Source: an uncultured Pseudomonadota bacterium
GTDB lineage: Bacteria; Oederibacteriota; Muellerivitia; Muellerivitales; Muellerivitaceae
Assembly: GCA_963770835.1 (NCBI GenBank)
Contig: CAVYRH010000008.1
Coordinates: forward strand, 96,001-160,000
Direction: 5' to 3'
Length of the DNA: 64,000 nt
Of this stretch, positions 1,616 to 36,813 are shown in pieces. Position numbers and translations under genes: made by a program. The notes beneath the pieces were generated by a model that was given only the letters and a program-made list of their open reading frames with translations, searched no databases and was not told the DNA's origin. Position 1 is the stretch's first letter, and each line of letters starts with the position of its first letter.

Positions 1616-1972
1616 TCAGATTCGCAGGGGAATGGGGACGGTCGATGGAAAAGCCGTTCTTCCAAAAGAGGCGGGAGCCGCTTGTGCCGTCACGCGGAAA
1701 GCGAAAACGGAAAATGGGGAATTGGGAGACAATCGGGCGCAAGGCTTGAAATTGTTGAATTTATTCCCGGCTTGAAGGGATTGGCAGTTGAGCTGGCTTA
1801 AAAACCTCTTGCCGAAAGCCTGGCGGTTGGAACGGCGGAGGGTGTCTTGGGCGCCGTAATTACCGTTGGCGCGGACCATCACCATGGCCAGTTCCCGGCA
1901 GGCCAGGGGAAGCAGGGCGGCGGCCACGAGGAAAGCCAATAGGTTTTTCCGGGAAGAGGTTAACTTCGGCAT
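1616..1972 (-). CDS. LRI-stop small membrane/secreted leader protein #1
   Basis: 118 aa; hydrophobic N-terminus LLAFLVAAALLPLAC; ends PIPLRI*; clear paralog of 3554..3910; GGAGGG RBS. Confidence 0.75.
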   Translation of the reverse strand: MPKLTSSRKNLLAFLVAAALLPLACRELAMVMVRANGNYGAQDTLRRSNRQAFGKRFLSQLNCQSLQAGNKFNNFKPCARLSPNSPFSVFAFRVTAQAAPASFGRTAFPSTVPIPLRI

Positions 1973-2036
1973 ATTTTCAAACCGTCCCTCCCTAAAAGGT
2001 GGAAGCCCCGGGGTGCGCCCGGCCGTGAGGCGCCGG

Positions 2037-3290
2037 TCATCCGGCCGCCATCGCTTTCACCGGTTTCCCGTTCGCCTGGAAGGCCTCCACCGATCCGTCT
2101 CGAAGGGTCAAGAGGACCTTTAAGCCCTTCCCCGACCCGGTGAACCGGACTCCTTTCACGCCGGTATCCAGGAAGAGGGGCTTGCCCCCGGTTTCCAGCA
2201 AAAAGGCGTCCCTTGTATCGCCGACCAGCTTCACCGTGCGGCTGTTGTCGTCGCTCTGGAAGAGAATCTCACCGGCGGCTTCTTTGGGGGCGGTATAGCT
2301 GGGGGTTTCGCCGGAACGGTTATAGGGCCCCGGCCCGCCCTGGGCCTGCGGTTCCTCGCCGTTATCCAGGGGCGGGTTGTTGTAACCGCCGTCACTGTTC
2401 GAAGGCACATATTGGCCGTTTTCATTGATATAAACCGTGTTGGTCGCGGGGTTGGGCCAGTTCCAGCACCCATTGTCCCAATAGTCCCAATTGCCGTACC
2501 AGGGGTCGTTCCACCAAAACTGGCCGCCATAATACTGGGTCCAAAAGCAGCCGCCGCCGCCGTACCAGCCGTACCAGTTGCAGCCGAACCCGTCGCAATA
2601 ATTGCAATAGTTCCACCCGTTGTAGCTATGCCAGAAGTATTGGTTGCGGTTGTTTTCGGCGGTACGGTTGAACCCGTTGAGCTGGGACTTGAAGTTCCGG
2701 TCCCCGGTAATGGAGTTCATTTGGTTGCGCACGAAGCCGGAGTTCATCTGGCGGGGCGAGAAGGCCGAGCCCGAAAGGCGCTGGCCGTAGGGGCCCCGGG
2801 AGGGCATCCGCGCCGAGGAACGCTGCATATTCCCCGGGAAGGACCGGCCGTTGGAGCGCCCGGTGAGGGAATTCCGGTTGAAGAACTGGGAACCCATGGA
2901 ACGGTTCCCGTTGAAGTTATTGCCGCGATAGTTCCGGTTGAAGCCGTTGGTGTTTCCATAAGCCCGGTTGAAAGACTGGTTCCGTCCTCCCCAAAAGCCC
3001 CGGTTGCCCCGGAAAGAAGACCCGTAATAGGAACGGGAACTTCCCCGGTAAAAGTTCCCAAAACCCCGGTTGCCGCCGCTGAAGCCCCCTCGAAAACCGC
3101 CTCCCCAGCCGCCATGGCCGCTCCAGGTGGAGTTGCCGTCGCTGAAACCCCCTCCGCCGCCACGGCTGCCGCCGCTGAAGCCCCCTCCGCCGCCCCCACG
3201 GCCGCCGCCCCCGCCCCCTCCGCCATGGGATGGCAAGGCCGCCGCCGGAAGCAACAAGGTCAGGGAAAAGATGAAGATTAGTTTTTTCAT
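2037..3290 (-). CDS. Secreted Gly/Arg/Asn-rich low-complexity protein with a Trp/Tyr/Cys-rich domain, paralog A
   Basis: Sec signal MKKLIFIFSLTLLLPAAA; poly-Gly/RGG tract; YFWHSYNGWNYCNY...DPWYGNWDYW; C-terminal domain shared with 7477..8763. Confidence 0.8.
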   Translation of the reverse strand: MKKLIFIFSLTLLLPAAALPSHGGGGGGGGRGGGGGGFSGGSRGGGGGFSDGNSTWSGHGGWGGGFRGGFSGGNRGFGNFYRGSSRSYYGSSFRGNRGFWGGRNQSFNRAYGNTNGFNRNYRGNNFNGNRSMGSQFFNRNSLTGRSNGRSFPGNMQRSSARMPSRGPYGQRLSGSAFSPRQMNSGFVRNQMNSITGDRNFKSQLNGFNRTAENNRNQYFWHSYNGWNYCNYCDGFGCNWYGWYGGGGCFWTQYYGGQFWWNDPWYGNWDYWDNGCWNWPNPATNTVYINENGQYVPSNSDGGYNNPPLDNGEEPQAQGGPGPYNRSGETPSYTAPKEAAGEILFQSDDNSRTVKLVGDTRDAFLLETGGKPLFLDTGVKGVRFTGSGKGLKVLLTLRDGSVEAFQANGKPVKAMAAG

Positions 3291-3353
3291 GTCGCACCGC
3301 CTAAAGGATTCGGGCCCTTCGTACCGTTCGGCCCCAATCCCACCTCTTACTGT

Positions 3354-3383
3354 TTGGACGTTCCAGCCTGTAAAAATAATTCC
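3354..3383 (-). promoter_or_regulatory. ECF sigma-like promoter upstream of Gly-rich paralog A
   Basis: Minus strand GGAATT-N17-CGTCCAA; same spacing and a shared TTTTTAC spacer core upstream of paralog B. Confidence 0.45.
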
Positions 3384-3477
3384 GCCTTAAACCCGCCCTT
3401 CTGGATTCGGAAAATTTTATTTTTGGATCTCACGGATTTTTTCGGTTTGTTTAAAAATCACTTCATCGAAAAGGGGA

Positions 3478-3527
3478 GACGCGGAATGATCCCTTGAAAA
3501 AAACACGGACAAGGAATCATCCGCGTC
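3478..3527 (-). other. Hairpin just downstream of the LRI #2 stop
   Basis: gacgcggaatgatccctt ... aaggaatcatccgcgtc near-perfect inverted repeat. Confidence 0.6.
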
Positions 3528-3553
3528 GGGCAATCAGTATTTCGGGGGAATTC

Positions 3554-3910
3554 TCAGATTCGTAACGGGGTAAGAACAGCGGCTGGAAAAGCCCCTTCCC
3601 CGAAAGCGGCGGGAGCCGCCTTTGCCGTGACCAACTCGGCAGAAAGGGACAAGGGGGTACGGGGGGAGAACCCGGTGCAAGGCTTGAAATTCGTGAATTT
3701 GTTCCCGGCTTGGAGGGATTGATTGTTGAGCTGGCTCAAAAACCTTTTGCCGAAGCACTGGCGGTTGGACTGGCGCAAATTATCTTGGGTGCTGTAACCG
3801 GCGTTGGAGCGGATAAGCACCATGACCAGCTCCCGGCAGGCCAGGGGGGGCAGCACGGAAAGGACTATTAAAACCAGCAGGTTTTTTTGAAAACCCGTTA
3901 ACTTCGTCAT
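3554..3910 (-). CDS. LRI-stop small membrane/secreted leader protein #2
   Basis: 118 aa; LLVLIVLSVLPPLACREL; FGKRFLSQLN shared with #1; ends TPLRI*. Confidence 0.75.
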   Translation of the reverse strand: MTKLTGFQKNLLVLIVLSVLPPLACRELVMVLIRSNAGYSTQDNLRQSNRQCFGKRFLSQLNNQSLQAGNKFTNFKPCTGFSPRTPLSLSAELVTAKAAPAAFGEGAFPAAVLTPLRI

Positions 3911-4140
3911 GATTTAACCCTACTCTTCCGCCCGGTAAGTTTCAAGGCCACTCCCGCGCGGCGGGCCACTCGAGACCACAAGTCGAGTGGGGTGGTTGCC
4001 CGCGCAAATTTATTAAGAAATCTGTAGAAAAGGCCGAAGAAAGGCCTGATTGGCATGAACTGCCGGTTGTGAAAGCTTCTTTACAATGGGCCATAATCTA
4101 AAGGCCGGGCCTCTTTATTCCGAAAGGAATCGGGGCGGAT

Positions 4141-4821
4141 TTAGTGCGGCGCGCAATAAAGCACCTGGGTCGCGAGGCAGGTGCCGCAGGTGTCATAGGC
4201 GCAGCCCAGGTAGGCGGCCCAAGAAAAGGCCCCCTCCATCAGGCTTGCCTTGGATTCGCAGTCGGTGAGCACGGTGGAGCAGGGCCCCTCGCAGGCGGAT
4301 TGCAGGGAACTTTTCATGCAGGACCAAAAGCCGTGGACGGCCTGCGTCTGGTAACCCGCCGGGGTCTTGACTGCGGTAAATTCCTTGACCATCAAGGGAT
4401 CCCGGTCCTGGGCGACCTCGAGCGCCCGGTAGGTGTTGACCCCGTCCGAGAGGTATTCCAGCGCGGCCGCGTCCGGGGACCCCACTTGGTCCAGGTCGTA
4501 AACGCGCCACGTCATGGTGACGGCCTTCCCGTCGCGGGTGACCGTCCCCCCCACGCCCCAGTCCCCGTTGGACCAGCGGCTGGTGAGGGTGTAACCCATG
4601 GACGCCGCACCCGCGACCAGGGCTTTCCAGGCGTCATCCAACGCCATCATGGTCGTATAATCGCTTTTCAACTCATCCAGCCCAAGGGTTTGCAACGGCC
4701 CATTCCCGCCCGATTGCGCGCAAGCTTGGGACGCAACCCACAGGGCGAACACCGCTCCCCATGCCCAAAAGGATGCCCCCTTCGCGGGGCCGCGACAGCT
4801 TCTGCGTTTAATGAAATCCAT
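4141..4821 (-). CDS. Secreted protein with an 8-Cys C-terminal domain (possible bacteriocin-like precursor)
   Basis: Signal peptide ending ACA; C-terminus GFWSCMKSSLQSACEGPCSTVLTDC...GCAYDTCGTCLATQVLYC; AAGGAGG RBS. Confidence 0.6.
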   Translation of the reverse strand: MDFIKRRSCRGPAKGASFWAWGAVFALWVASQACAQSGGNGPLQTLGLDELKSDYTTMMALDDAWKALVAGAASMGYTLTSRWSNGDWGVGGTVTRDGKAVTMTWRVYDLDQVGSPDAAALEYLSDGVNTYRALEVAQDRDPLMVKEFTAVKTPAGYQTQAVHGFWSCMKSSLQSACEGPCSTVLTDCESKASLMEGAFSWAAYLGCAYDTCGTCLATQVLYCAPH

Positions 4822-5204
4822 GGCGAACCTCCTTGGCTCAAAGTCTACTTTTATTGGACACCCGCGAATTCCGGGAATTCAAGGCGGTGCATGCGGAAAG
4901 AGGGCCGCCTTCGGAACGTTCTTCCCATGTTTATTGAATCGGCTTATGAGAATTAGGCTGACGCCTTTTCGACACGGGTCGAAGCGCGGGCGGGAAGCCA
5001 AGCGAATGGGTATGAGTGGCCCGGCCATGAAACTGGCGGCCCCACACCCCTTGTGGGGCTGTTTCATACCATAACCCAGGGTTATCTTCCGGACGGGGGC
5101 CGGGTTTCAACTGTCTTAAAAAGGCAAATCTCCTTATGTTTAACCCAATTGCGTAACCTTTGCGGCCCATCGGCCGTCTAAAATAGGCAAAAGGAACGGT
5201 ATTA

Positions 5205-5561
5205 ATGGTACTGCAACCCCAAAACCGAGCCCAAACCCAACCCTCTTTTTTTAAAGCCGGGGCCGCTTTCCTCGTCTTCATCATCACCTTCTTATCCTTT
5301 GTTCCGGGCGGGTCCATCTCGCTTAAAGTTTCCACTATTTCCCATTCAAGCATCCCATCCACCGGCCACTGGCGGGCCAGCCGGCGCATTTATCCCAACC
5401 AGCAGGCCTCCAGCAAATCCGCAGTGGAAGTTCCCTTCAACTTCTATCCGCCCCAAACCTCCCCGGAAAGGATTTTCCGGGTGGCGCAAGACCGCAATGC
5501 CGCCGTTCCCCCTTTGAACCGCCGTTCCCCCGCCGTGCTTTTCTCCGTCTTACGCATTTAA
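5205..5561 (+). CDS. LRI-stop small membrane/secreted leader protein #3
   Basis: 118 aa; TM AGAAFLVFIITFLSFV; Pro-rich tail ending SVLRI*. Confidence 0.65.
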   Translation: MVLQPQNRAQTQPSFFKAGAAFLVFIITFLSFVPGGSISLKVSTISHSSIPSTGHWRASRRIYPNQQASSKSAVEVPFNFYPPQTSPERIFRVAQDRNAAVPPLNRRSPAVLFSVLRI

Positions 5562-5580
5562 TCTAACCCGCCGTTCCCCC
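5500..5580 (+). repeat. 13-nt direct repeat CCGCCGTTCCCCC x3 straddling the LRI #3 stop
   Basis: Exact copies at 5500-5512, 5519-5531 and 5568-5580. Confidence 0.85.
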
Positions 5581-5661
5581 GGGCATTTAAAAACCGCCCA
5601 CCCCTTGTTTCCGATTTTCCGTTTTTAAACATTTTAATTTTTACAACTGAAGGAGAAACCC

Positions 5662-5835
5662 ATGCGATGGAAAGAAATACTGATCGGCGCCGGCATTTAC
5701 CTGTTGGTCATCCTGTCGGGTTACGAAGTCCCTTTTTTCATCCATCTTGTTAAAGCCCATTGCCAAACTCTTATCGCGTTCGGAAAAGAAGAACGAGCGG
5801 TTTGGCGTTTCGCGGTTCACAGCTTCGGGCTTTAA
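5662..5835 (+). CDS. 57-aa small membrane protein (below the ORF-track cutoff)
   Basis: AAGGAG RBS then MRWKEILIGAGIYLLVILSGYEVPFFIHLVKAHCQTLIAFGKEERAVWRFAVHSFGL*. Confidence 0.65.
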   Translation: MRWKEILIGAGIYLLVILSGYEVPFFIHLVKAHCQTLIAFGKEERAVWRFAVHSFGL

Positions 5836-5905
5836 CCTCGGGCTAAAAAAACCAACCTACAACGCGGCCGGCCCCTTAGGAGCCGCCGCCAGAAAGGAAA
5901 AAAAC

Positions 5906-6559
5906 ATGAATTTTTATATCTCAATCTCCCAGCTGATCCAAGCCGCCGAGGGCCTGGAAAAAAACCTGAGTCTCCTGGCCGAAAGGGCTTTCCGGGTCTG
6001 TCCCCGGGATGCCCGCGCAAACCGGGATCTTCTGGGGCAATGCGCGGAGCAAGTGGGGGCAGCCAGGGAAACCTTGGGAAAGAAGGTCCTCCTCAGCAAG
6101 ACGGCGCTGCGCCACGCGGCCATGCTTTCCCAAATTTTCGGCCTTTGCTTCCGCCGGATGGTTCTCCTGGGGTCCACCGTGGCGGGCATCGAAAAGGAGG
6201 ATGGGGAATACGCCCAAACCGTCCTGTATTTATTCTCAGGAGCCCACCGCCACTTTGTCCTGTTCCAGGAAACCCTGGCCAAGCTGACTTGCGTTCCCCT
6301 GGCATTGGAATTTCAGCCTCCCGCGGATCAAACGGAAAGCGCCATGGGTGTTTTCCAGCGGGAGGAATCCTACCGCCGGGAGATGCTGGGCCTTTTGGAA
6401 AAAGCCCTCGAGCTTTTCAACGAGGAGCGGGAATTGTATGACTCGTTCCAATCGATCAGGCAGGATCTTTTGGAAGCGAAGCGAAAAACGAGGCGGCTCT
6501 TAATCGTCCAGGCGGCTCCCAAAGCCGTCCCGCCTTCGCCGGTATTGGCGCGGAGCTGA
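5906..6559 (+). CDS. Alpha-helical hypothetical protein, possibly a degenerate ferritin/rubrerythrin-like bundle
   Basis: AAGGA RBS before ATG 5906; amphipathic helices; HRHF and EESY segments but no intact ExxH pairs. Confidence 0.55.
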   Translation: MNFYISISQLIQAAEGLEKNLSLLAERAFRVCPRDARANRDLLGQCAEQVGAARETLGKKVLLSKTALRHAAMLSQIFGLCFRRMVLLGSTVAGIEKEDGEYAQTVLYLFSGAHRHFVLFQETLAKLTCVPLALEFQPPADQTESAMGVFQREESYRREMLGLLEKALELFNEERELYDSFQSIRQDLLEAKRKTRRLLIVQAAPKAVPPSPVLARS

Positions 6560-6611
6560 CGAGCCGTCTGTCCCTGAAGTGGTCGTGAAGTGAAGAAATT
6601 TATGTATGAAA

Positions 6612-6660
6612 AAACGGCGCCCCGGGATGTGGAATCCATCCCAAGGCGCCGTTTCCTTTT
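6612..6660. terminator. Probable bidirectional terminator between convergent genes
   Basis: aaacggcgcc-ccgggatg...catccc-aa-ggcgccgttt stem with A/T-rich flanks. Confidence 0.6.
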
Positions 6661-6672
6661 AACCCTCCGAAA

Positions 6673-6933
6673 TTAAGCAGGGGTCTTCACCGCCAGATCC
6701 ACCAGTAGTGCCATGATGGCTTCCCGGGCATCCCCTCCCTCGGCGGTGATTTCGAGATTGTTACCCTTGGCGGCAAGCAAACCGATGATTTCGACGAAAC
6801 TTTTGGCGTCGACAACCACCTTTCCTTTTTGAATCTGTATTCGGGATTTAAACCGGGATGCGGTCTTTTGAAACTCCGACAACGTCCTTATTTGAAACTT
6901 AGATGGGTGTGGAATAGTGACTTTTTTAACCAT
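6673..6933 (-). CDS. Crh-like HPr paralog (His15->Gln, Ser46 retained)
   Basis: SKFQIRT at the GLHARP position; VDAKSFVEIIGL; EITAEGGDAREA; AAGGAG RBS. Confidence 0.75.
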   Translation of the reverse strand: MVKKVTIPHPSKFQIRTLSEFQKTASRFKSRIQIQKGKVVVDAKSFVEIIGLLAAKGNNLEITAEGGDAREAIMALLVDLAVKTPA

Positions 6934-7058
6934 TGGGAGGCTCCTTTATTGAGTCTTTTTATTTGGATTTTTCGCGTAACACGCATGGGAAACGGCATAA
7001 AAATACACTAGTGCGGGGTTTGTCCGCGGAACATCAGCCACTCAATTTTGGGGAAGCC

Positions 7059-7430
7059 TCAAATGCGCAAGGGAGGAGCGGAACAACTGGGATGAACTGG
7101 TACAAACCGTGGATTAAATAAGGCGCCGTTTTTTTCATCCCCTTCCGGATTGGTGGGTTTTAAGGAAACCCTTGAATCCGAATAAGGCCTAGGGGGATTG
7201 TGGAATTTTGAATCGAATTCTTTGGCTTGGGCGTCAAGTAAATGAATCAGGGTTTTTCCAAAACGCCGGCCTTGGCCGGTGTTGGAAAAAGAAGCTTGTG
7301 AAAATAAGCGGGGACAGTGAAGGCTCAAGCTGAGAAGCTGCCGGCAGGCAAAGGGCATCAGGGTCGCCGCCAGGAGACCCGTTAGGAGAGTACGCCGTAA
7401 AAACACCCATCGTCCCATCCAGACACCCAT
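7059..7430 (-). CDS. LRI-stop small membrane/secreted leader protein #4
   Basis: 123 aa; LLTGLLAATLMPFACRQL and RRFGK shared with #1/#2; ends APPLRI*. Confidence 0.7.
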   Translation of the reverse strand: MGVWMGRWVFLRRTLLTGLLAATLMPFACRQLLSLSLHCPRLFSQASFSNTGQGRRFGKTLIHLLDAQAKEFDSKFHNPPRPYSDSRVSLKPTNPEGDEKNGALFNPRFVPVHPSCSAPPLRI

Positions 7431-7476
7431 CCTGCTTTACCCTTTTGTGGGAGCATTCATCAAAATAGTTTTCGAC

Positions 7477-8763
7477 TCACGTTTTCACGCTGCCGGCCGG
7501 TGTACCGTCCGAATTGAAAGTCTCAAAAGTGCCGTCCTTGAAGATCAATAAAATCTTCGTCGGCCCGGTGCCGGTACTGGAAAATTTCACTTCCTGTACG
7601 TTGGTATCCAGGTAAACCGGCTTGCCGGAGGCTTTTGAGTTATTCAGGTCATAAAGAAAAGCGTCTCCTGTGGCCGAAACCGCCACCTTGACCTTTCCAT
7701 CCTGGCTCACAAAATCAATTGGTTCGTTGGAGGCGTTCGCGGCGGAACCGTTGGGCTCGATATTGTTCGTTAGCTTTTGTTCCTGGTTGTCCCCGTAAAC
7801 CGGGCCGCCGTAATCATCTTGGTTGTAGGCTGAGGAGCCGTTGCCGTTGCCGGCGGAACCGCCGGCGTTGCCGTCGCCCTGGGCCGGAGTATATTGGCCG
7901 TTGTTGTAGACGTAAACGTTCGTGGTCTCGGGGTTCTGCCACCACCAGTTATTACCGTACCAATAGTCCCAGTTTCCATACCAGGGGTCGTACCACCACC
8001 AATTGCCGGCGTAATACTGGCTCCAGAAGAACCCCCCGCCGCAGTTCCAGCCCCACCAGCAATTTCCGAAGCGGTCGTAGTAGTTGCAATAGTTATAGCC
8101 GTTCCAAGAGTGCCATAAATATTGGTTGGTCCTTCCGGCGATCGGGGTGGTGGCGGCGACTTTGGCCATGAAATTCCGGTTACCCGCGATGGCGGCCATT
8201 TGGGTCCGAATCGCGGGGCTGTTCATTCCGCGAGGGGAAACCACAGAAGAAGAAAAAGACCGGCCTGCGGGCCCTTGGCTGGGCAGCCCCGGCGCGGAAT
8301 GACTGAGATTGTGAGAAAGCATCGCCGAGGAAGACAGCGGCCGGGGAATGCTGGTCACTCCCATGCGTTGCAGGTTCTGCGGAACGACATTGGAATGATA
8401 AGTGTTGGAGCCGTTGTAACGGGAATTCGTGGAGAAATTGAAATGGTGGAAGGTCCCGCTTCCCTGGTAGGACCCATTGCCGCGGTAGCCGCGGTTGTAA
8501 TTGTAGGTGCGGCCTGAGGACCGGTAATAGGCCCTTCCATTGGAATAGTGTTGACCGTGATACACGGTGTCGTTGGAAGTGTTGGAACCGGTGGACCCTC
8601 CACCGCCGCCAGCATTACCGCCACCGCCACCCCCTCCGCTGTAACCACCACCGCCGCCGGCGTTGCCGCCACCGCCGCCCCCGGACAATCCCTCGTTATG
8701 GGCCCAAACCAACCCGTAAGGAATCAATGCCAGGATCACTACCACCATTATTGTCTTTTTCAT
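7477..8763 (-). CDS. Secreted Gly/Asn/Tyr-rich low-complexity protein with a Trp/Tyr/Cys-rich domain, paralog B
   Basis: Signal MKKTIMVVVILALIPYGLVWA; poly-Gly; YLWHSWNGYNYCNYYD...DPWYGNWDYW; C-terminal GKPVYLDT...DGTFETF; GGAGG RBS. Confidence 0.8.
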   Translation of the reverse strand: MKKTIMVVVILALIPYGLVWAHNEGLSGGGGGGNAGGGGGYSGGGGGGGNAGGGGGSTGSNTSNDTVYHGQHYSNGRAYYRSSGRTYNYNRGYRGNGSYQGSGTFHHFNFSTNSRYNGSNTYHSNVVPQNLQRMGVTSIPRPLSSSAMLSHNLSHSAPGLPSQGPAGRSFSSSVVSPRGMNSPAIRTQMAAIAGNRNFMAKVAATTPIAGRTNQYLWHSWNGYNYCNYYDRFGNCWWGWNCGGGFFWSQYYAGNWWWYDPWYGNWDYWYGNNWWWQNPETTNVYVYNNGQYTPAQGDGNAGGSAGNGNGSSAYNQDDYGGPVYGDNQEQKLTNNIEPNGSAANASNEPIDFVSQDGKVKVAVSATGDAFLYDLNNSKASGKPVYLDTNVQEVKFSSTGTGPTKILLIFKDGTFETFNSDGTPAGSVKT

Positions 8764-8820
8764 GAAACCACCTCCGGTAAAGCCTTCCCCACGCCGTCTA
8801 CTTTGAAATCCTTACACTAT

Positions 8821-8850
8821 TTTGACGTTTCAAAGGGGTAAAAAGGTCCC
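8821..8850 (-). promoter_or_regulatory. ECF sigma-like promoter upstream of Gly-rich paralog B
   Basis: Minus strand GGGACC-N17-CGTCAAA. Confidence 0.45.
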
Positions 8851-8940
8851 TGCCTAAGGGGCATAACAACAATCCGTCCCTCGAAACGCCGGTTTTAACC
8901 ATCCAACCAACACTCAATCCTCTGAAAATCGAATATATAC

Positions 8941-9615
8941 TCAATTTTCAGTTTCTTCGGAAATGATCCCCTCCGCCGCATCCAATAATCTCAAGGGCTC
9001 AACACACAAGGGATAATCCGTATCGAAAAAAGCGCATCGGATGATCCCTTGGGAGCTGATTCCGTATATCGCCGGAACCGGAAGGACATAAAGGGTGTTG
9101 CCCGTGTATTCCCTTAAATGAATCCCCGCCCTTCGAAGAGTTTTCGGGTTGATCTGGAAAGCCAATCCGAACCTTCTCGTGACATCCATAATTCTATCGC
9201 AAAACAAGGGAAAGTTGAGGTGGTCCCGGTCCTCCGTCTCCTGGAGCTTTGCGGGTTCATCCGGCGAAACGGCGAGGACTTGGAATCCAAGACGGGCCAG
9301 GCGGGGCTCAATCCCGGCTAATTGCTCCAACTGTTCATTCGCGAAAGGAGACCATCCTCCCTGGTAAAAGAGGATGAAAGTACTCTTCCCGCGAACCAAT
9401 CCCTCGAAATCCACCGCTTTCCCATCAGTGGACCTTAAAGTCCCGAAAGGCAGGTCATCCCCGACGCCAAGTGGAACTACGGACTGGGGGCTATGGGCAA
9501 TCATCTTTTTCGGCTCCACCCCGCCCCACATTCCATCTCCATCCCTTGCCAGGGCCCCGTTGGCCACGCCCATGAAAACGAAAAGGAAGCAGGCCGTATA
9601 AATTTTTATTTTCAT
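8941..9615 (-). CDS. Exported AhpC/TSA (peroxiredoxin-like) protein with the active-site Cys lost
   Basis: Signal peptide; VGDDLP; FYQGGWSPFANEQL (cf. FYRGxWCPxC); LAVSPD; LPVPAIY. Confidence 0.75.
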   Translation of the reverse strand: MKIKIYTACFLFVFMGVANGALARDGDGMWGGVEPKKMIAHSPQSVVPLGVGDDLPFGTLRSTDGKAVDFEGLVRGKSTFILFYQGGWSPFANEQLEQLAGIEPRLARLGFQVLAVSPDEPAKLQETEDRDHLNFPLFCDRIMDVTRRFGLAFQINPKTLRRAGIHLREYTGNTLYVLPVPAIYGISSQGIIRCAFFDTDYPLCVEPLRLLDAAEGIISEETEN

Positions 9616-9716
9616 CCCAACCTCCCGGCCCCCGGACGAACCCGGCGTCGTTCCCCAAACCCTCCATTATTCATATTCAAAATCCGAACAATCTGTTTCA
9701 ACCCTGTCCGCTTTAG

Positions 9717-11198
9717 TTATTTTACCGCGTCGGACGTTCCGCCCCCTAAAAGGTACTTCTCCCCCATCGCCGATAAAAGTTGCGTTTTAGCCTCGGCCGT
9801 TTGAAGGCCGACGTTCACCATGTCTTTCAAGGCCTGCTGAAGGTCCGAAAGGGGCCCCAGGAAGGCCAGGTATCTCTGGCGGGCCAGGGCCGCGGCCTTT
9901 TGAGCCTGATCCTGTTCCACCGACAAGGTTGCCAGGTCCTCGCGGGCCTCTTGCATTTGTTCCAGGTAGCGGACGTTTAAGTCGTCCAAAACCAGCTGGT
10001 CGGCGGAAACCTCTGCTTGCCGGGCCTGAGTCTCCGCCCGCGCCGCCTTTTCCTGGGCGTCGATGCGGAAGCCCTCGAAAATCGGCAGGCTGACACCCAC
10101 GAACAAGGAATAGTCCTGGGAGCCCACCAGGCGGGTATCGCTTAAATAGCCGGCGCCCCCGGCCACCTCCAAAACCGGGAGGTTCTCGGCGGAATACTGG
10201 GCAGTCGTCTCGTTGGCGGATTTGGTTTCCAATTCCGCTCCCGCCACCAGGGGATTCATCCCCGGCACCGTCAGGTTCGCCAGGTCCGCTTCCGACAACT
10301 CGGAGGGCGCGGGGCAGGAAATGCCCTTGGCGTCCAGCCCCGTCAAGAGAGCCAGGCGTTCCAGGGTTGCTTGGTACTGGCGGTTGAAGTCCGAGGCCTT
10401 CATGGCCGCGTCGGCCAACTGGTCGTCGATCAAATAGCCCTGCACTTGCGAGTACTGGCCGTTACGGACGAACCGAGCCACGGTGGTCTTGATGCCGGTG
10501 AGTTCATCGGCCAGGGCCTGCCACGCGTCCCGCTCCCCCCTTTGCCGCACCGCCTCCAGGTAAAGGCCCAGGGCATGTTCGTCCACCAGCTCAGCCTGGA
10601 ATTTCGTCCTTTGCCGGCTGGCGTCGTATTCGTAGTGGGCGGCGGACGACTGGTGCCAGATGGATAAGTCCAGGAGATCCCATTTGGCGTAGGCCCCGGC
10701 GGCGGCGCCCTGGCGGTAAGGAGAGGCCACCAGGCCTGGAAAACTGTTCAATCCGGAAGTGCCGAAACCCGAGGCCGATCCCGGGAAGCCGGTGGAATCC
10801 ACCGCATCAGCCCCCAGGTCCGGGTAAAAGCCCGAATCCGCGACCCGGGAGAATTCCCGGGCTTCGTTTTCGCGCGACGCGACGGCCTGGAGGGCGGGGC
10901 TTGTTTTTTCCGCCAGGCGCATGGCTTCGCCCAGGGTCAGGACTTTCCCAGGATTCTCCTGTGCGGTGGCAATCAACGGCAAAAGCAAAAAGAAGATTCC
11001 ACCGCCAAGACGCCAAGACGCCAAGAAAAATCTTTTCTTAAAAAACACACAATATCTAAAAACATGGTTTCGAAAAAATTCAACAAGGGATTCTGTTTTA
11101 GTTTTGAATTTTCGCCTCTCTTGGCGTCTTGGCGTCTCGTGCTTTTTACTGCCCTTGGCCGAAGGCCAATGGGTGGCGGTAGCTGTTGTCTTTCTCAC
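9717..11198 (-). CDS. TolC-family outer membrane efflux protein
   Basis: LTLGEAMRLAEKTSPAL, YPDL, SLPIFEGFR, A..RY..G motifs; follows two RND genes; N-terminal extension contains a palindromic insert so the start is uncertain. Confidence 0.85.
   Translation of the reverse strand: MRKTTATATHWPSAKGSKKHETPRRQERRKFKTKTESLVEFFRNHVFRYCVFFKKRFFLASWRLGGGIFFLLLPLIATAQENPGKVLTLGEAMRLAEKTSPALQAVASRENEAREFSRVADSGFYPDLGADAVDSTGFPGSASGFGTSGLNSFPGLVASPYRQGAAAGAYAKWDLLDLSIWHQSSAAHYEYDASRQRTKFQAELVDEHALGLYLEAVRQRGERDAWQALADELTGIKTTVARFVRNGQYSQVQGYLIDDQLADAAMKASDFNRQYQATLERLALLTGLDAKGISCPAPSELSEADLANLTVPGMNPLVAGAELETKSANETTAQYSAENLPVLEVAGGAGYLSDTRLVGSQDYSLFVGVSLPIFEGFRIDAQEKAARAETQARQAEVSADQLVLDDLNVRYLEQMQEAREDLATLSVEQDQAQKAAALARQRYLAFLGPLSDLQQALKDMVNVGLQTAEAKTQLLSAMGEKYLLGGGTSDAVK
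11003..11137. repeat. REP/MITE-like element: 19-bp inverted repeats built from (CGCCAAGA)n around an AT-rich spacer
   Basis: agacgccaagacgccaaga (11008-11026) is the exact reverse complement of 11119-11137. Confidence 0.75.
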
Positions 11199-14404: not shown

Positions 14405-14471
14405 GGGTGCACTTCCTTTCCCCGCCGGGGAACGCCCGACCGGAGGTTGGATGGGAAAAACCCACCCTTTC

Positions 14472-17400
14472 TCACTTCAACCGGCCCTCGTAAAAGGCGC
14501 TTTGGGGATCGATCGGGTCCAACGACGCCGTGTGGGTAGGTTTCTCATGGTGAACGATGGCATAGATGACCGGCATGATGAGCAACGTGGTGATAGTCGA
14601 ACCCAGTAGCCCCCCGATGACCGCCCGGGCCAGGGGCGCGCTCTGCTGGCCGCTTTCGGAAAGCCCCAGGGCCATGGGGATCATGCCCACGATCATAGCG
14701 ATGGCCGTCATCAAAACCGGCCTCAAGCGGCTATGGGCCCCATGAACGGCAGCCTTCCAGGAATGGACGCCCGATCGCCGCGTCAGGTCCGCGAAGGTCA
14801 CCAGCAGGATCGAATTGGAAACCGATACTCCGACGGCCATGATGGTCCCCATGAAGGATTCGATATTCAAGGTCGAGCCGGTGAGGTAAAGAAGCGCGAG
14901 GGCCCCGGTGAGGACCGCCGGAACGTTGGAAACCACGATGGCGGCAATTGGGAAAGATTCGAAACTTCCCGCCAAAAGCAGGAGGATGACGATGATGGCG
15001 AAGAGCAACCCCGCCGAGAGGCCACCCACCATGGTATCCAGACTCTTAACCTGGCCCTGTACCCGAATTTGGGTTCCCCGCGGCAGGCCTTCCCGGATGG
15101 GTTTCAAGGCTTTTTCGATTTTTTGATCGGCGTGGCCCAAGTCGATGCCGAAAAGATTGCTTGTGACGGTGGCCATGCGCAGCATGTTGTACCGGTCGTA
15201 TTCCGCCACGGCGGTCACGGGTTGGACCTCCGCGAAATTGTCCAACGGCAGGGATGCGCCGTTGAAGGAGATCGGAACCTTTTTCAACTGGTCGACGGAG
15301 GTGACCAGGTTTTGGGGGACCTCAACCTGCACCTGGTAATTGATGCCGCTATGGGTGTCTTCCCAGAAATTCAAAAGCGAGAAGCGGCTGGAGGAAGTGA
15401 CGGGGATGAGGGACCGCCCGATGTCCGCCACCTGCACGCCGCGCAAGCCCGCCTTCCGGCGGTCCACTTGCACCTCGACGGCCGGATAATCGAAAGGTTG
15501 GCCGTACTGGATATCCCTTAAACCCGGAATTCCCTCCAGTGCCTGTTTCACCCGGGCCGCCACTTGCCGGTCGGCGTCCAAGTCGTGCCCGCTCACGGCG
15601 ATTTCAATGGGTTTGGGTGAGCCCTCGCTCATGACCTTGTCCACCATACCGCTGGCCTCAAAGGAAATTTCCACCCCCGGCAATTGCTGTTGGAAAAGGG
15701 GCCTTAACTTTTCCTGCAGTTGGGCGGTCGATATCTTGGAATCCCCCTTCAGCTGTACCTGCAGGCTCGCCTCTTGGGGGCCGGAAGTCCAAAGGAAGAT
15801 GGAATTGATTGCGTATTGGGTAGGCTGGGTGCCCACGTAGCCCAAGGTCGTTTCCACGTTGTCCGCCCCAGCGGCTTGCTTGATAAGATCAATCACTTTA
15901 AGCGTGATCCGCTCGGTTTCGTCGATGGCGGTGCCGGTCGGGGCCCGGACCCGCAAGGCCAATTGGTGGCTATCCACCTGGGGAAAGATTTCCCGTCCGA
16001 TGAGGGTTCCCAGGCCCAAAATTGTGAGGACGGCCACGATAATATAGAGCCCTTGAAAGGGCCATCGGTACCGGTAAATGAATTCAAGGATGCGGCCATG
16101 GGCCCGCCGCAGCTTTTCAATGAAAGGCTCCTTCTCATCCTTGCCTTGGGACTTTTTCGCGCGTTGCCCGTGGCCTTGGGGCAAAAGCCAGGTAGCCAGG
16201 ATCGGCACGATGGTCATGGAAAGAAAAAAGGCCCAGATGATGGAAAAGCCGACCGCCAGGGTCAGTGGCACGAAAAGGGCCTTGGCCATACCGCCCATGA
16301 AGAAGGCGGGAATGAAAACCGCCAGGATGCACAACATGATGAGGAAAGCCGGGCGGAAAATTTCGCTGGCGCCGTTGATGGCGGCGGTGGCCAGGTTTTC
16401 ACCTTTCTCCAGGCGCACGTGGATGTTTTCGATGGTGATGGCGCTTTCGTCCACCAAAATGCCGATGGCCAAAGCGAGTCCACCCAGGGTCATGATATTG
16501 ATGGTCTGGCCCGCGATCTTCAGGCTGAAAATGGCCCCCATGACAGCCAAGGGGATGTTGATGATGACAATGAGGGCGCTTCGCCAGTCGCCTAGGAACA
16601 ACAGGACCATGAGCCCGGTCAGGAGGGCCCCCATCGCCCCCTCAAAGGCCAGGGAGCTGATGGAGTTCTTGACCGCGCCCGATTGGTCGAATTCGTACTG
16701 GACTTCGATGTCCTTCGGCAAAACGCTTTTGAAGAGCGGGATGCTGTTCTTGACCTCGTTGACCACCGTCAAAGTGGAAGCGTCCGAGTGCTTGGTGACC
16801 GGCAGATAGATGGTTCGCTTGCCATTCAAGAGGGCGTAGCCCACCTGGATGTCGGTGGAATCGGAAACCGTGGCGATGTCTTTGAGGAAAACCGTGGGAT
16901 AGGTCCCCAGCCGGATGGGCACGGTCAAGAGTTCGTCGATCTTTTCCACAATGGAATTCATGGGCACCAGGGGGTACTGGGTGCCGATTTCCAAGTTGCC
17001 GGCGGGTACAATCAAGTTGGATTTTGCCAGGGCCACCGCCACATCCTCGGGCGAAAGGCTGAACTGGCTCAGTTTACGTGGATCCACGTTGATCACGATC
17101 GTGCGGGGGGATGAGCCGAAGGGGTTGGGCGCCAAGATCCCGGGCAAGGTGGCCAACAGGGGTCTGACGTAATTGAGGGCGTAGTCCTCAATATCCCCTA
17201 GGTTGCGGCCGGGACTGGAGAAGACCAAATCGCCCACCGGCAAACTTCCGCTATCAAAGCGCAAGATGAGCGGCGGCAAGGTGCCCGCCGGCATGTTCTT
17301 CAAGGCCCGGCTGGAATAAGCCACCACTTCCGCCATGGCCGCGGCCATGTTAGTTCCGGCGTGGAATCGCAGCTTAATGATCGAAGTCTGGGCGATGCTC

Positions 17401-17705
17401 TTGGATTCGATATGCTCAATACCGTTGACATAGAAGAATTGGCTTTCGAAGTTATAGGTGAGGAAACTTTCCACCTGGGCCGGACTTAAGCCACCGTAAG
17501 GCTCCACCACGAAAATTTGGGGCGTACCCAAATCCGGGAAGATATCGAACTGCATGTTAAAAAGTGCCGAAAGGGCTCCCAGCGCGATGGCGATACAAAG
17601 CACCACCATGGTGATCGGGCGGCGCATTGCCAATTCCACGAGCTTCACCCGAAAGACACCCGCAAGGCTTTTGTTCTTATCATTCAATCGTTTTTTTAAA
17701 GGCAT
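14472..17705 (-). CDS. RND efflux permease, copy 1
   Basis: 1077 aa; same motifs; close paralog of 11195..14404. Confidence 0.95.
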   Translation of the reverse strand: MPLKKRLNDKNKSLAGVFRVKLVELAMRRPITMVVLCIAIALGALSALFNMQFDIFPDLGTPQIFVVEPYGGLSPAQVESFLTYNFESQFFYVNGIEHIESKSIAQTSIIKLRFHAGTNMAAAMAEVVAYSSRALKNMPAGTLPPLILRFDSGSLPVGDLVFSSPGRNLGDIEDYALNYVRPLLATLPGILAPNPFGSSPRTIVINVDPRKLSQFSLSPEDVAVALAKSNLIVPAGNLEIGTQYPLVPMNSIVEKIDELLTVPIRLGTYPTVFLKDIATVSDSTDIQVGYALLNGKRTIYLPVTKHSDASTLTVVNEVKNSIPLFKSVLPKDIEVQYEFDQSGAVKNSISSLAFEGAMGALLTGLMVLLFLGDWRSALIVIINIPLAVMGAIFSLKIAGQTINIMTLGGLALAIGILVDESAITIENIHVRLEKGENLATAAINGASEIFRPAFLIMLCILAVFIPAFFMGGMAKALFVPLTLAVGFSIIWAFFLSMTIVPILATWLLPQGHGQRAKKSQGKDEKEPFIEKLRRAHGRILEFIYRYRWPFQGLYIIVAVLTILGLGTLIGREIFPQVDSHQLALRVRAPTGTAIDETERITLKVIDLIKQAAGADNVETTLGYVGTQPTQYAINSIFLWTSGPQEASLQVQLKGDSKISTAQLQEKLRPLFQQQLPGVEISFEASGMVDKVMSEGSPKPIEIAVSGHDLDADRQVAARVKQALEGIPGLRDIQYGQPFDYPAVEVQVDRRKAGLRGVQVADIGRSLIPVTSSSRFSLLNFWEDTHSGINYQVQVEVPQNLVTSVDQLKKVPISFNGASLPLDNFAEVQPVTAVAEYDRYNMLRMATVTSNLFGIDLGHADQKIEKALKPIREGLPRGTQIRVQGQVKSLDTMVGGLSAGLLFAIIVILLLLAGSFESFPIAAIVVSNVPAVLTGALALLYLTGSTLNIESFMGTIMAVGVSVSNSILLVTFADLTRRSGVHSWKAAVHGAHSRLRPVLMTAIAMIVGMIPMALGLSESGQQSAPLARAVIGGLLGSTITTLLIMPVIYAIVHHEKPTHTASLDPIDPQSAFYEGRLK

Positions 17706-17949: not shown

Positions 17950-18294
17950 TTAAATTCTTAAAATGCGGAAACTAGGAGGAAGAACGAGGCAAGAGACAGC
18001 TATGGGGCCTGGCCTCAGTGATCGAAGGCCAGGGACAAAAAGCGAATCCTTTGAAATACCTAACCAAACATTCAGGAGACAAAAACCGCGTTTCTCGGTT
18101 TTTTCAAAGGAACTGCGGTAATGGAGGCCTCCCGTGGTCGAATGAACATTGGCGAAAGGGGCTGCCTCCGTAATGGATGCTCCCGTTTTCGGAAACAAAG
18201 AATCCGCCCGATTGGTCAGGCTGGGCCGCAAAGACAAAAGGACAAGGCCGAGGGCCAAGGCCGTTTGGAAAATGATTTTCACCGTGTTTTTCAT
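17950..18294 (-). CDS. LRI-stop small membrane/secreted leader protein #5 (upstream of the RND operon)
   Basis: 114 aa; IFQTALALGLVLLSLRPS; ends PPSFRILRI*; N-terminus resembles #6. Confidence 0.65.
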   Translation of the reverse strand: MKNTVKIIFQTALALGLVLLSLRPSLTNRADSLFPKTGASITEAAPFANVHSTTGGLHYRSSFEKTEKRGFCLLNVWLGISKDSLFVPGLRSLRPGPIAVSCLVLPPSFRILRI

Positions 18295-18425
18295 CGGTAA
18301 TAATTATGGGGGGTCCTGAATTTTTTTTCAAGACGTCTGTCCGAAAGCTGATCTTCCATAAATAACTTCCGGGCTTCCAGAATGGGTTTCGAGGGATTCA
18401 AGGCAAAAACCAGGGGTACAGCGGC

Positions 18426-22576: not shown

Positions 22577-22599
22577 AACGGGCCGTCACGAGAACCGGT

Positions 22600-26060: not shown

Positions 26061-26098
26061 TTTTAACTTACAAGAGGTCATTACACTCAGGTTCCGGA

Positions 26099-26809: not shown

Positions 26810-26820
26810 AAATCAATTTC

Positions 26821-26919: not shown

Positions 26920-26940
26920 ACTCCGCCGTCTTTGCGGGAA

Positions 26941-27669: not shown

Positions 27670-27867
27670 GACATTAGCTTACCAAAGTTTGAGGCACAGA
27701 GGAGGCAGGGCGTAAGGAAGGTAAAAACAAATAATCGGATAGGTCAATGGCGCCCCTACTAGAAAAGTAAATCGGAAATAGGGTACGCCATCTGGTTTTC
27801 CCATCGTTGAAGATATTTTTATTTTGCCTTACTCTGTGTCCTCCGTGAACTCTGTGGTGAAAGGGCT

Positions 27868-28839: not shown

Positions 28840-28873
28840 TCCAAAAAGATGAACCGGTTTGTTTAAGGGCGTT

Positions 28874-29662: not shown

Positions 29663-29757
29663 TTAAATACCCTCACGCATAAAACCGGTAGCCGGCCCGC
29701 TTCACAGCAATTCGCTAAGAACGACATAAAATGATTATACGGCCGGAACCAAAAAAA

Positions 29758-30540: not shown

Positions 30541-30543
30541 GCC

Positions 30544-31506: not shown

Positions 31507-31555
31507 CGTCGGCTCCTTTAGAAAAAATCCACCGTAAAGCTATTGGCTCAACTCG

Positions 31556-32296: not shown

Positions 32297-32446
32297 GATG
32301 TCCCCCTATTGCTAAATTAGAACCGCAGTATTTTACTGGATAAGGCATCGCAAGCCAGCCTTTGATTTTTGGCTCCAAGCGGTTCCACTCGAAACGGCTA
32401 TCCGTCCGAATTCGAAAGTTGTATGCTCCATGCGGAAATACATACT

Positions 32447-34045: not shown

Positions 34046-34111
34046 CCGGGTTCTTGCCCGATCACCAATTAAACGCTTCCGATGGTTTTCCGGTCCCCAT
34101 CGGCGGAACCT

Positions 34112-35140: not shown

Positions 35141-35384
35141 TTATAAAAACGACCTTCAAGATTTATGTTCCGGCTTTCCCCAAACCCAGAAGCTACAACC
35201 GGGTCAGGAAAACTGTTGTAAGTTTATCACGCAATTTAAAATACGATCCTTCACCAGGGACAACTCATCCCACCGGGTGGTGAACCGATCGATTAAACCT
35301 GGGATTTCACGCTCCAATGCCGCGCAAAGCCCTCCGTCGCCAAACGCAAGGCCACTCCTCCCTTTGGACATTTCAACCTCCCCG

Positions 35385-36362
35385 TCACTTGTTTGAGAAC
35401 ACCCATTCCAAAAAAAGTTGCTGGGCAACCTGGTTCCGGCCGTTGATCCACGGGTCGCAATGGCCGCAAGTCACGGGCTTATCTTTCACGCGCTGCAGTT
35501 CTCGGCGGTATTGCGCCATCTTATCCGCCAGGCCCAAACGGCGGCTCAGGGAATAGCAATCGCTGAGGGCGCAAAAATCACCCGGGTGGCTGGAATAATA
35601 GTCCTCAAAATAGGCCAAATCCTTCGGGGACTGGGCATGGAGGGGATGGACGCTGTCATAGGTCTGGACCAGGTCCAAAAACCCGTCCTTGTCCCGGGTG
35701 AATTCCTTGCCGGTCCACCGGATGGGCCGCCCGTAATAGATTTGGAACTCATCCCCGCTTTTGATCATGGCCCTCTGGTAATCCACCAGGATCGGCTTGC
35801 CCGATTCCTTGGTGACCCGTGGCCCTTCCCCGAACCCTTGGAAGGATGCCAATTTTTTAAAACTCCCGGCCTCAGGGCTGTCCTTAAAGGCGTAAATATC
35901 CGCGATTTGCGTCGTGCCGGAAGAGGAATAAACCACCAGTTGGTCCCTGCCCGCGACGGTCAAGTCGGCGCCTTCATAACCCTCGTATTTTTTGCCGCCG
36001 CCCAGTTCAACCTGGATGAGTTTCCAATCGCCTTGGACCTTATGGAAATAGGCAAAACCCGATCCCGCGTCCTCGACCATTTGGCGTTCGGAATTGTAAA
36101 CCACCCCCACGTCCCGGTAGCCGGACACCCCGATAATAACGTCGGTTTCGGGGGTTTTTGAGAACTCATGGTAGGCGGTGCCGGCGATGTTCCAATAGGT
36201 CCCCTTTTGGGAGGGGTATTTTTTGGCGATCCTATCGTTGATATCCCCCAAGCGGATCTGGCCCATCGCAATGAGCATGCAGGCTGTTTCATCCGTCGCG
36301 AAAGCCGGAAACACCGGCATCAGCAGCAATAGCAGAACGAATATTTTTTTCATTTTTGTCAC
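35385..36362 (-). CDS. Secreted hypothetical protein (downstream of LRI #6)
   Basis: Signal MKKIFVLLLLLMPVFPAFA; C-terminal CGHC. Confidence 0.7.
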   Translation of the reverse strand: MTKMKKIFVLLLLLMPVFPAFATDETACMLIAMGQIRLGDINDRIAKKYPSQKGTYWNIAGTAYHEFSKTPETDVIIGVSGYRDVGVVYNSERQMVEDAGSGFAYFHKVQGDWKLIQVELGGGKKYEGYEGADLTVAGRDQLVVYSSSGTTQIADIYAFKDSPEAGSFKKLASFQGFGEGPRVTKESGKPILVDYQRAMIKSGDEFQIYYGRPIRWTGKEFTRDKDGFLDLVQTYDSVHPLHAQSPKDLAYFEDYYSSHPGDFCALSDCYSLSRRLGLADKMAQYRRELQRVKDKPVTCGHCDPWINGRNQVAQQLFLEWVFSNK

Positions 36363-36477
36363 CTCAATGGATGGTTAAAAGTTGGTGGTTTGGTGGCTGG
36401 AGAATCGAAGGAAACCGGAACTATCCTGCCCCCGGCTTCGCGGAGCGGGAGTAGCCCTCAACGCTTGGGAAAATGGA

Positions 36478-36813
36478 TCAAATTCTTAAGCAGAGAAAAC
36501 CGTGGGGACATCCAAAGGCAGCTTTTTTAACCGGCACAGCGCCATAGGAGGGCGCAACTTCTAATGGGAAGGAGCCGGGTGATTTCGATAGAACCTCCCA
36601 AAAGTGGGTTGTTTTCTCGTCATCCCGGTCGCATTTTAAAAAAACGTAACGGTAGGAAACCGGTGGGTGATTTGCTTTAGAAAGGTAGCTTGGCGCGGAG
36701 ACGGGCCCCGTGGAACCCCCTTGCGCCAAAACGGTCACACTGGGTTTTAAGGAATATAAAAGTAATCCGAGGATTAAAACCATTTGAATGAAAGGTCGAT
36801 AGCGAGGAATCAA
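36478..36813 (-). CDS. LRI-stop small membrane/secreted leader protein #6
   Basis: 111 aa; IQMVLILGLLLYSLKPS; ends FLCLRI*. Confidence 0.6.
   Translation of the reverse strand: MIPRYRPFIQMVLILGLLLYSLKPSVTVLAQGGSTGPVSAPSYLSKANHPPVSYRYVFLKCDRDDEKTTHFWEVLSKSPGSFPLEVAPSYGAVPVKKAAFGCPHGFLCLRI

Follow-up and report, generated by a model that had tools for sequence, protein, structure and literature searches.

Small LRI-stop leader ORFs with a probable new termination-arrest motif in an uncultured member of the Muellerivitaceae

Known arrest peptides that bear a targeting signal are RAPP-like, proline-rich or built on a few lineage-specific motifs, and they control mostly sec, yidC or copper genes. 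Here, we set beside them a family of small open reading frames (ORFs) from an uncultured bacterium of the GTDB family Muellerivitaceae, six of which lie in a 64,000-nt stretch of assembly GCA_963770835.1 (contig CAVYRH010000008.1, positions 96,001-160,000; hereafter, the window). The source genome is coded G000 and this contig C8, with relatives coded G001, G002 and so on. A sequence-only reading of the window had noticed that each of the six ORFs combines an N-terminal hydrophobic segment with an ending in Leu-Arg-Ile directly before the stop codon (LRI-stop), and had proposed that they are leaders acting at the termination stage. With a probability that we put at roughly 0.7, they are cis-acting leaders in which the ribosome would dwell at LRI-stop for a time set by the fate of the exported N-terminal part and would thereby free the Shine-Dalgarno (SD) sequence of the next gene, with an RNA polymerase pause keeping the timing. 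The analysis covers a working set of 50 loci in four subfamilies (A, 18; B, 8; C, 16; D, 8) and 20 held-out loci, 70 in total.

In CutF of Rhodobacter capsulatus, the ribosome stalls on a proline-rich motif and opens a stem-loop over the downstream SD (PMC9973294; 10.1101/2025.02.05.636593). As predicted for the LRI leaders, CutF is a small exported leader, with OEP and ACR_tran genes among its neighbours (10.1101/2022.11.11.516240 = PMC9973294; 10.1101/2025.02.05.636593). By contrast, the invariant element of the LRI leaders is LRI at the stop codon; a Pro-Pro pair (PP) is absent from 32/50 of them, none matches DUF2946, and most lack a metal motif and stand ahead of HPr-like, membrane or secreted-protein genes, with up to nine leaders per genome. 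The size and spacing rule for CutF-like proteins (Ozturk; <150 amino acids (aa), same-strand gene within 1000 nt) holds for 50/50, all of them 106-123 aa long, and PP occurs within the last 15 residues of 18/50 (C 14/16, A 3/18, B 1/8, D 0/8), in the window only in leaders 4 and 5. By these sequence features, subfamily C is CutF-like, whereas the family as a whole, like four of the six window ORFs, falls outside the rule on PP. Searches for DUF2946/CruR relatives gave no PF11162 match in the 50 members at E<=1 and an RxPP-like motif in 1/50, the PF11162 matches of the source genome lying in other genes; HYC_CC_PP (NF047658) was not among the matches of the 50 members and was found in 0/99 genomes, in a search that recovered no positive control either. 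No Pfam or NCBIfam family fits the 50 members.

CruR and the RAPP-type leaders resemble the LRI leaders in being small and secreted, in preceding envelope and metal genes, and in having a long spacer with a proposed RNA polymerase pause, and differ in that RAPP arrests elongation and the output runs through Rho (PMC9426467; PMC12992588). Separate RAPP leaders are present in the source genome at C19:405841-406137(+) and C26:877573-877863(-), as is an SPP leader at C19:410657-410836(+), all three His-rich with weak DUF2946 scores; judging from sequence, the classical RAPP class coexists with the LRI class in this genome.

The layout of a targeting signal joined to a stop-codon motif is shared with uA_NSP-stop, uDF_NAP-stop and uDF_DGMK-stop (10.1101/2023.09.02.556018) and with CliM of C. 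difficile, which has an N-terminal localisation signal, conserved spacing and the stop codon in the A site; an SD-masking stem has been shown for C. kluyveri cliM (PMC13183943). These peptides carry other motifs and precede sec or yidC genes, and their arrest is demonstrated, whereas for the LRI leaders we infer it from sequence. None of the 50 classified LRI-leader targets is secA, secDF or yidC. LudP (10.64898/2026.10.26.761930) is also placed among the termination-arrest monitoring substrates that the LRI leaders would resemble in their working. In TnaC, PepNL and ErmDL, similarly, a penultimate residue, which in TnaC and ErmDL is Arg, obstructs the A site in an RF2/UGA context (PMC11890864; PMC13183943), but these are short cytoplasmic peptides without a targeting segment (PMC11890864). 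Because the union of a signal or transmembrane segment with termination arrest has already been published for CliM, NSP-stop, NAP-stop and DGMK-stop, the architecture put forward in the sequence-only reading is not a new kind. An LRI-stop leader or motif was not found in the literature searched, which comprised mostly open journals and the PMC10987492 supplements by whole word (a mode that would miss LRI within sequences) and lay outside the PMC9973294 list of 5,334 CutF-like proteins, which may include subfamily C relatives. What is new relative to CutF, CliM and the NSP-stop peptides is probably the motif, not the logic.

The LRI leader family

The source genome has 17,139 ORFs of 60-200 aa, and 13 of them, against 4.7 expected, end in LRI. 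Among the 140 frames with one N-terminal hydrophobic run, the commonest ending is AGG and eight end in LRI (Poisson ~1e-16, with the filter set after the ORFs had been seen). A joint profile finds exactly nine LRI leaders genome-wide, namely, the six of the window and those at C8:173571, C4:756040 and C26:396413, and matches 28 of the 31 genomes of the bacterial family, the named relatives carrying the label candidate division FCPU426 or unclassified. Among 40 non-self loci extracted from hidden Markov model (HMM) matches, 38 end in LRI, the other two being a false match and a frame that TAG interrupts. Homologues aligned over the N-terminal part only still end in LRI in 7/7 cases, so the tail is not what selected them, and in protein databases the ending is found in 12/12, 26/28, 38/40 and 12/13 matches, the exceptions appearing truncated, shifted or false, with one LLI. 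The 20 held-out loci, chosen by protein profile alone from ~24 new full-length matches with duplicates and contig ends skipped, end in LRI in 20/20 cases, but LRI itself is part of the searching HMM. The expectation of the sequence-only reading that such endings would exceed chance, be conserved in homologues and recur across the genome and its relatives is borne out, and by sequence comparison the LRI leaders are a real, selected, multi-copy family.

Searches for the family elsewhere gave few leads. The subfamily A profile matched 0/68 genomes of other families of the phylum, and that of subfamily C gave 28 matches among 1.84 billion representatives. A pattern combining LRI with an anti-SD stretch matched 33 times in the 31 family genomes (its reversed control, 10 times) and 22 times outside the family; of 20 of these outside matches examined, none had a hydrophobic-leader ORF. 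A metagenome scan with the pattern returned at least 118 stretches, for the most part chance matches; none of those listed was a clear leader, and the scan has no bearing on range. A search with tblastn against plasmids gave a single match (E=10). In the ESM Atlas, which offers leads only, leader 5 lies near unnamed Myxococcota/Bacteroidota clusters and a C leader near DUF6769, DUF6660, DUF8199 and DUF2946 clusters with low shared-feature counts.

Two further sequences deserve mention. A 417-aa kinase-like ORF (window 60843-62096(-)) ends in LRI with ATA and TAG, both codons never seen in leaders, and is a useful chance control. In L026/L237 (G001:C175, same genus), a homologue of leader 4 is broken by an in-frame TAG, with the HPr-like target frame still downstream.

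The leaders are about 105-123 aa long and begin with a net-positive N-terminus, after which 12-23 residues in a row (median about 15-16) are uncharged, up to a near-invariant Pro. The single N-terminal transmembrane segment of the sequence-only reading is present as a hydrophobic segment, but its length, the charge before it and the Pro at its end make it signal-peptide- or signal-anchor-like. From this Pro to the C-terminus there are 81-99 aa; with LRI invariant, the leaders show both the conserved C-terminus and the >30-aa spacer after the signal that are expected of Sec/YidC monitoring substrates. Profile comparison indicates that the four subfamilies have nothing in common but the N-terminal segment and the tail, with only three residues invariant across all.

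The subfamily type tracks the downstream target. Across the 50 loci, the targets are PTS-HPr (16), OEP (11), ACR_tran (6), YtkA/FixH-like (2) and proteins of no family (15), and the co-oriented gene begins 80-263 nt downstream in 50/50 (54-263 nt across all 70 loci). Subfamily A (leaders 1, 2 and 4) has an HPr-fold gene next in 16/18 and subfamily B (leaders 5 and 6) an RND permease in 6/8; this reproduces the two groups of the sequence-only reading, yet leaders 5 and 6 are just 27% identical. Subfamily C, which has no member in the window, carries six invariant Cys residues including CxxC, such Cys being absent from A, B and D, and is followed by an outer-membrane efflux protein in 11/16; the C leader of the source genome precedes a CusA/CzcA pump. 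Small membrane proteins are next in subfamily D, of which leader 3 is a divergent member. D-type leaders precede HPr-like genes in L245 and L247, and leader types have, by this distribution, switched targets. In the HPr-fold targets behind subfamily A leaders, the equivalent of His15 (canonical motif, GLHARP) is missing by eye in 15/16, L022 keeping it, and these His-less proteins are possibly a family of non-phosphocarrier regulators. The best example of the system is L013 (G000:C26:396413-396766(+)), in which a leaderless-type promoter, a six-Cys LRI leader, a predicted 12-bp anti-SD helix and a pause motif are followed by TolC-like, adaptor and CusA/CzcA genes.

The ratio of nonsynonymous to synonymous substitution rates (dN/dS) is 0.28-0.40 overall and ~0.22 in the last 12 codons, in 38 pairs with >=45% identity from A, C and D (no two B members were that close), which indicates purifying selection on the leaders. 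LRI endings use every one of the six Leu and six Arg codons, which, together with dN/dS <0.5, rules out a DNA repeat or an RNA-only motif. Lipoproteins were considered and rejected, Cys after the hydrophobic run not being conserved in subfamily A. In another explanation, they would be small membrane or periplasmic proteins acting in trans, with LRI at the C-terminus as the ligand of a common partner and with a gene position that would only reflect co-expression. The conserved middles specific to each subfamily and the second predicted helix in subfamily A fit such proteins. However, the structure model of leader 2 (18 sequences; helices 4-40 and 50-70, last 45 residues of low confidence, mean pLDDT 59) shows no confident fold (pTM 0.22, residues 74-108 with pLDDT <50), the subfamily profiles have just the two ends in common, and both the close co-oriented gene in 70/70 loci and the RNA features anchored at the stop codon point away from action in trans, which we hold to be very improbable.

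The codons at the end of the leaders are biased. The stop codon is TGA in 39, TAA in 11 and TAG in 0 of the 50 loci, and TGA in 16 and TAA in 4 of the held-out 20, compared with TAG in 401/2582 genome-wide; the genome appears to encode both release factors (prfA above the cut-off and a second paralogue). Ile is ATA in 0/70. For Arg, 31/50 leaders use AGA, which stands at 5% genome-wide; for Leu, 25/50 use TTA, which stands at 7%. This strong TTA-AGA bias shows that some of the constraint acts on the RNA. The four last codons do differ as noted in the sequence-only reading, which took this to point to selection on the peptide, but the codons are not free.

The exactness of LRI bears on a different explanation, namely, plain translational coupling with a degron: ordinary termination would open the helix, and LRI would be a hydrophobic C-terminal tag by which the exported by-product is destroyed, candidate readers being proteases of the Prc/Tsp or HtrA type with PDZ domains. 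Degrons tolerate substitution, whereas LRI is exact in nearly all of >100 sequences (the LLI case aside), and none of the matches to FRI/LSI patterns were leaders; nor does a degron predict the absence of TAG and ATA from 70/70 loci. What makes coupling with a degron attractive is that LRI is a non-polar C-terminus, that just three residues are invariant, that helix and pause would serve any terminating ribosome, and that rapid degradation has been proposed for CruR (PMC9426467) and reported for CutF (PMC9973294). We consider it unlikely as the full explanation; the degron or PDZ ligand named as an alternative in the sequence-only reading may be a second role of LRI, but leaves the RNA features unexplained.

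RNA elements behind the stop codon

We folded the 50 leader-spacer-start regions and compared them with 170 of 557 co-oriented control gene pairs. Predicted partners of the downstream ribosome-binding site (RBS) peak at +1 to +15 after the stop codon, with 1.18, 1.71 and 0.90 bp per 5-nt bin versus 0.13, 0.08 and 0.08 in controls, and drop to 0.05 at +16. The footprint of a ribosome with the stop codon in its A site reaches ~+10, and the RBS-pairing stretch matches the bases that such a ribosome would cover. At least four expected base pairs with the downstream RBS are found in 21/50 loci versus 13/170 controls, and in 12/20 held-out loci. In 18 C and D loci, which were picked for short spacers and visible pairing, a 10-bp helix has 84% of cells paired and 19 double changes, compared with 42-73% in slid controls and with 0/500 shuffles as high, a test inflated by kinship. 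Members of subfamily A achieve SD pairing with unrelated sequences. Rfam covariance models had no matches in the window and none over the spacers of eight loci, and an RNA model (R1) matched only its two training loci in the source genome.

A YGCGY motif stands behind a spacer hairpin in 33/50 loci versus 12/170 controls, with G at -10 in 23/31. It fits the elemental RNA polymerase pause signal G-10, Y-1, G+1 (PMC12288461), and a hairpin with the pause-like pattern occurs in 26/50 loci, versus 7/170 controls and a mean of 4.1 in shuffles, and in 13/20 held-out loci. At the other end of the leader, TAnnnT is found 6-7 nt before ATG in all 16 C leaders and five A leaders including leader 2 (21/50 versus 99/1433), suggesting leaderless mRNAs.

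If stalling is real, its main output might instead be transcriptional, with Rho loading blocked by the logic of TnaC or CruR or with a terminator shifted, and with the anti-SD helix as a later add-on in some subfamilies. Rho is present in the genome, and CruR acts via Rho (PMC9426467). C>G-rich windows occur in 9/29 loci without the helix and 1/21 with it (9/170 controls), bases +5 to +10 are pyrimidine in 42-45/50 loci of any subfamily, and a terminator-like hairpin lies behind leader 1, all of which would suit this output. Subfamily B, however, has neither helix nor C>G bubbles (0/8), and terminator-like sites in window 1-9800 are no commoner than in shuffles (15 vs 19.2); we regard a mainly transcriptional output as distinctly unlikely.

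The six loci of the window

All six ORFs of the sequence-only reading are 111-123 aa long and end in LRI, that at 5205-5561 (leader 3) on the plus strand and the other five on the minus strand. From the stop codon to the next co-oriented start there are 108, 263, 100, 125, 244 and 124 nt for leaders 1 to 6, in agreement with the 100-263 nt first noted, as are the kinds of target: Pfam places the downstream genes of leaders 1 and 4 as HPr-like and that of leader 5 as ACR_tran, with no family for the other three. The features are as follows.

1616..1972, minus: LRI leader 1 (118 aa, subfamily A), an ORF with homologues preceding the same HPr-like gene in G001, G002, G004, G015 and G020
1606..1614, minus: predicted post-stop anti-SD strand of leader 1 (+2..+10), pairing over 9 bp with the SD/start of the HPr-like gene in the minimum free energy (MFE) structure; 3.9 expected bp in the ensemble, duplex -12.4 kcal/mol
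1577..1598, minus: spacer hairpin P2 of leader 1 by folding, then a U-rich run (terminator-like or pause-like)
1564..1576, minus: YGCGY spacer motif of leader 1 by motif match, without the G-10 of the full pause consensus
1506..1516, minus: region of the HPr-like gene with SD and start, pairing with the leader 1 anti-SD in the MFE structure
1190..1507, minus: target of leader 1, an HPr-fold protein (PF00381) without the His15 equivalent, read by eye
3554..3910, minus: LRI leader 2 (118 aa, subfamily A), sharing 64% identity with leader 1; ORF, alignment and structure model
3917..3945, minus: sigma70-like promoter TTGAAA-17-TAGGGT by consensus match only, ending 6 nt 5' of the leader 2 ATG; probable leaderless mRNA
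3478..3527, minus: long spacer hairpin 3' of leader 2 by folding, with no stop-to-SD pairing predicted
2037..3290, minus: target of leader 2, a Gly-rich secreted-type protein of no family (ORF and Pfam)
5205..5561, plus: LRI leader 3 (118 aa, divergent), by ORF and profile; homologue in G001:C175
5539..5546, plus: predicted anti-SD of leader 3 inside the coding region (last codons, footprint edge), pairing with the SD at 5652-5658 in the MFE structure
5662..5835, plus: target of leader 3, a 57-aa membrane protein, a short relative of the 144-aa gene behind the contig-C4 leader (42% over 31 aa)
7059..7430, minus: LRI leader 4 (123 aa, subfamily A), an ORF
7041..7058, minus: predicted post-stop anti-SD strand of leader 4 (+1..+18); 8.7 expected bp, duplex -17.0 kcal/mol
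6939..6953, minus: region of the HPr-like gene with its SD, pairing with the leader 4 anti-SD by folding
6673..6933, minus: target of leader 4, an HPr-fold protein (PF00381) without the His15 equivalent, read by eye
17950..18294, minus: LRI leader 5 (114 aa, subfamily B), by ORF and folding, with no post-stop SD pairing
14472..17705, minus: target of leader 5, an RND permease, after which come a second RND permease and an outer-membrane efflux protein (Pfam)
36478..36813, minus: LRI leader 6 (111 aa, TTG start, subfamily B-like), by ORF and folding; the downstream RBS is predicted to be already open (opening cost 2.1 kcal/mol)
35385..36353, minus: target of leader 6, a 322-aa secreted-type protein of no family (ORF and Pfam)

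With the ribosome footprint blocked, the predicted cost of opening the RBS falls from 10.1 to 5.8 kcal/mol behind leader 4; behind leader 3, it falls from 15.1 to 9.8 kcal/mol only when a wider footprint is assumed. Leader 5 has no SD and lies 8 nt from a promoter-like match, TTGAAA-17-CATAAT at 18303-18331(-), on the 5' side of its ATG; its mRNA is possibly leaderless too.

Several neighbours of the leaders are of interest. The ORF list shows two tandem RND permeases and an outer-membrane protein, then an AhpC/TSA-family gene, at 9717-17705(-), with no periplasmic adaptor evident between them. The genes at 2037-3290(-) and 7477-8763(-) encode paralogous-looking Gly-rich, Trp/Tyr/Cys-rich secreted proteins of no family, and both lie directly upstream of an LRI leader, an arrangement also found in G004. 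Downstream of the HPr-like target of leader 1 there is a canonical-looking HPr at 662-940(-), and at 1011-1193(-) a 60-aa Cys/His protein (H-x-x-x-C-x-x-C; no NCBIfam match) that is kept behind the HPr-like gene in relatives and that we take to resemble an anti-sigma zinc finger.

Proposed working and meaning

Under the favoured reading, the 105-123-aa peptide would be translated and its N-terminal hydrophobic segment would engage the translocon. Termination would be slow or stalled when the ribosome reaches L-R-I with TGA or TAA in the A site, and the dwelling ribosome would keep the first ~10 post-stop bases single-stranded. In many loci, these bases are the predicted anti-SD strand, otherwise paired with the RBS of the next gene 80-130 nt away, so that dwelling would free the RBS and switch the next gene on. 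The hairpin and the G-10...Y-1 G+1 element 45-65 nt after the stop may pause RNA polymerase ahead of SD synthesis, which would give the lead ribosome time to arrive. The variable middle would be the sensor, of metal in the six-Cys subfamily before CusA/CzcA-type pumps, as in CutF, and, in the subfamilies of the window that are linked to HPr, RND and membrane-protein genes, probably of export status. Loci without a helix (leaders 2, 5 and 6) would need another output, possibly Rho, or have none. Published structures lend plausibility to the proposed arrest chemistry, since CliM and PepNL obstruct the GGQ loop of the release factor with the side chain of their penultimate residue, a position taken by Arg in ErmDL and TnaC (PMC13183943, PMC11890864).

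Several observations weigh against this mechanism, besides the way in which the covariation loci were picked. The helix is patchy across subfamilies (C 13/16, D 4/8, A 4/18, B 0/8), and among 17 representatives with <35% identity it is found in only six and the pause pattern in only four. In the same representatives, the absence of TAG (p~0.06) and of ATA (p~0.07) is not significant, and TTA (12/17) and AGA (12/17) are still strongly enriched, without explanation; two of the four long proteins that end in LRI by chance also use TTA AGA. The spacing from hairpin to pause is compatible without being specific (22/26 at the actual site versus 18-21/26 when shifted by +6 to +12). Within the window, folding finds the RNA switch clear at leader 4, partial at leaders 1 and 3 and absent at leaders 2, 5 and 6, and the full pause pattern occurs in 0/6 loci, with the YGCGY core at leaders 1, 2 and 4.

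Overall, the termination-stage cis leader of the sequence-only reading, in which translocon pulling or a ligand would release the arrest, is partly supported: LRI in homologues found by their N-termini, the lack of TAG and the RNA elements keyed to the stop codon speak independently for it. LRI-stop is probably a new termination-arrest motif, with a predicted RNA switch well defined in about half of the loci. A bolder version, which we offer tentatively and think somewhat doubtful, is that LRI-stop is a proline-free three-residue arrest code in a portable cassette (targeting segment, swappable sensor, LRI-stop, anti-SD and RNA polymerase pause), often leaderless and in up to nine copies per genome, which stands before unrelated targets (metal/drug efflux, secreted proteins and His-less HPr regulators) and wires the state of the translocon or periplasm to a regulon without transcription factors.

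The >100 natural variants and the predicted covarying RNA switch make LRI-stop readily testable cell-free, and a hydrophobic N-terminus, a length of ~115 aa and an LRI ending provide a search rule for unannotated leaders elsewhere. If the favoured reading is true, LRI-stop, unchanged behind four unrelated sensor bodies, would rank as a new termination-arrest signal of very short length, and arrest leaders would be used in these bacteria as a multi-copy regulon, including an exported peptide that controls cytoplasmic HPr-fold proteins.

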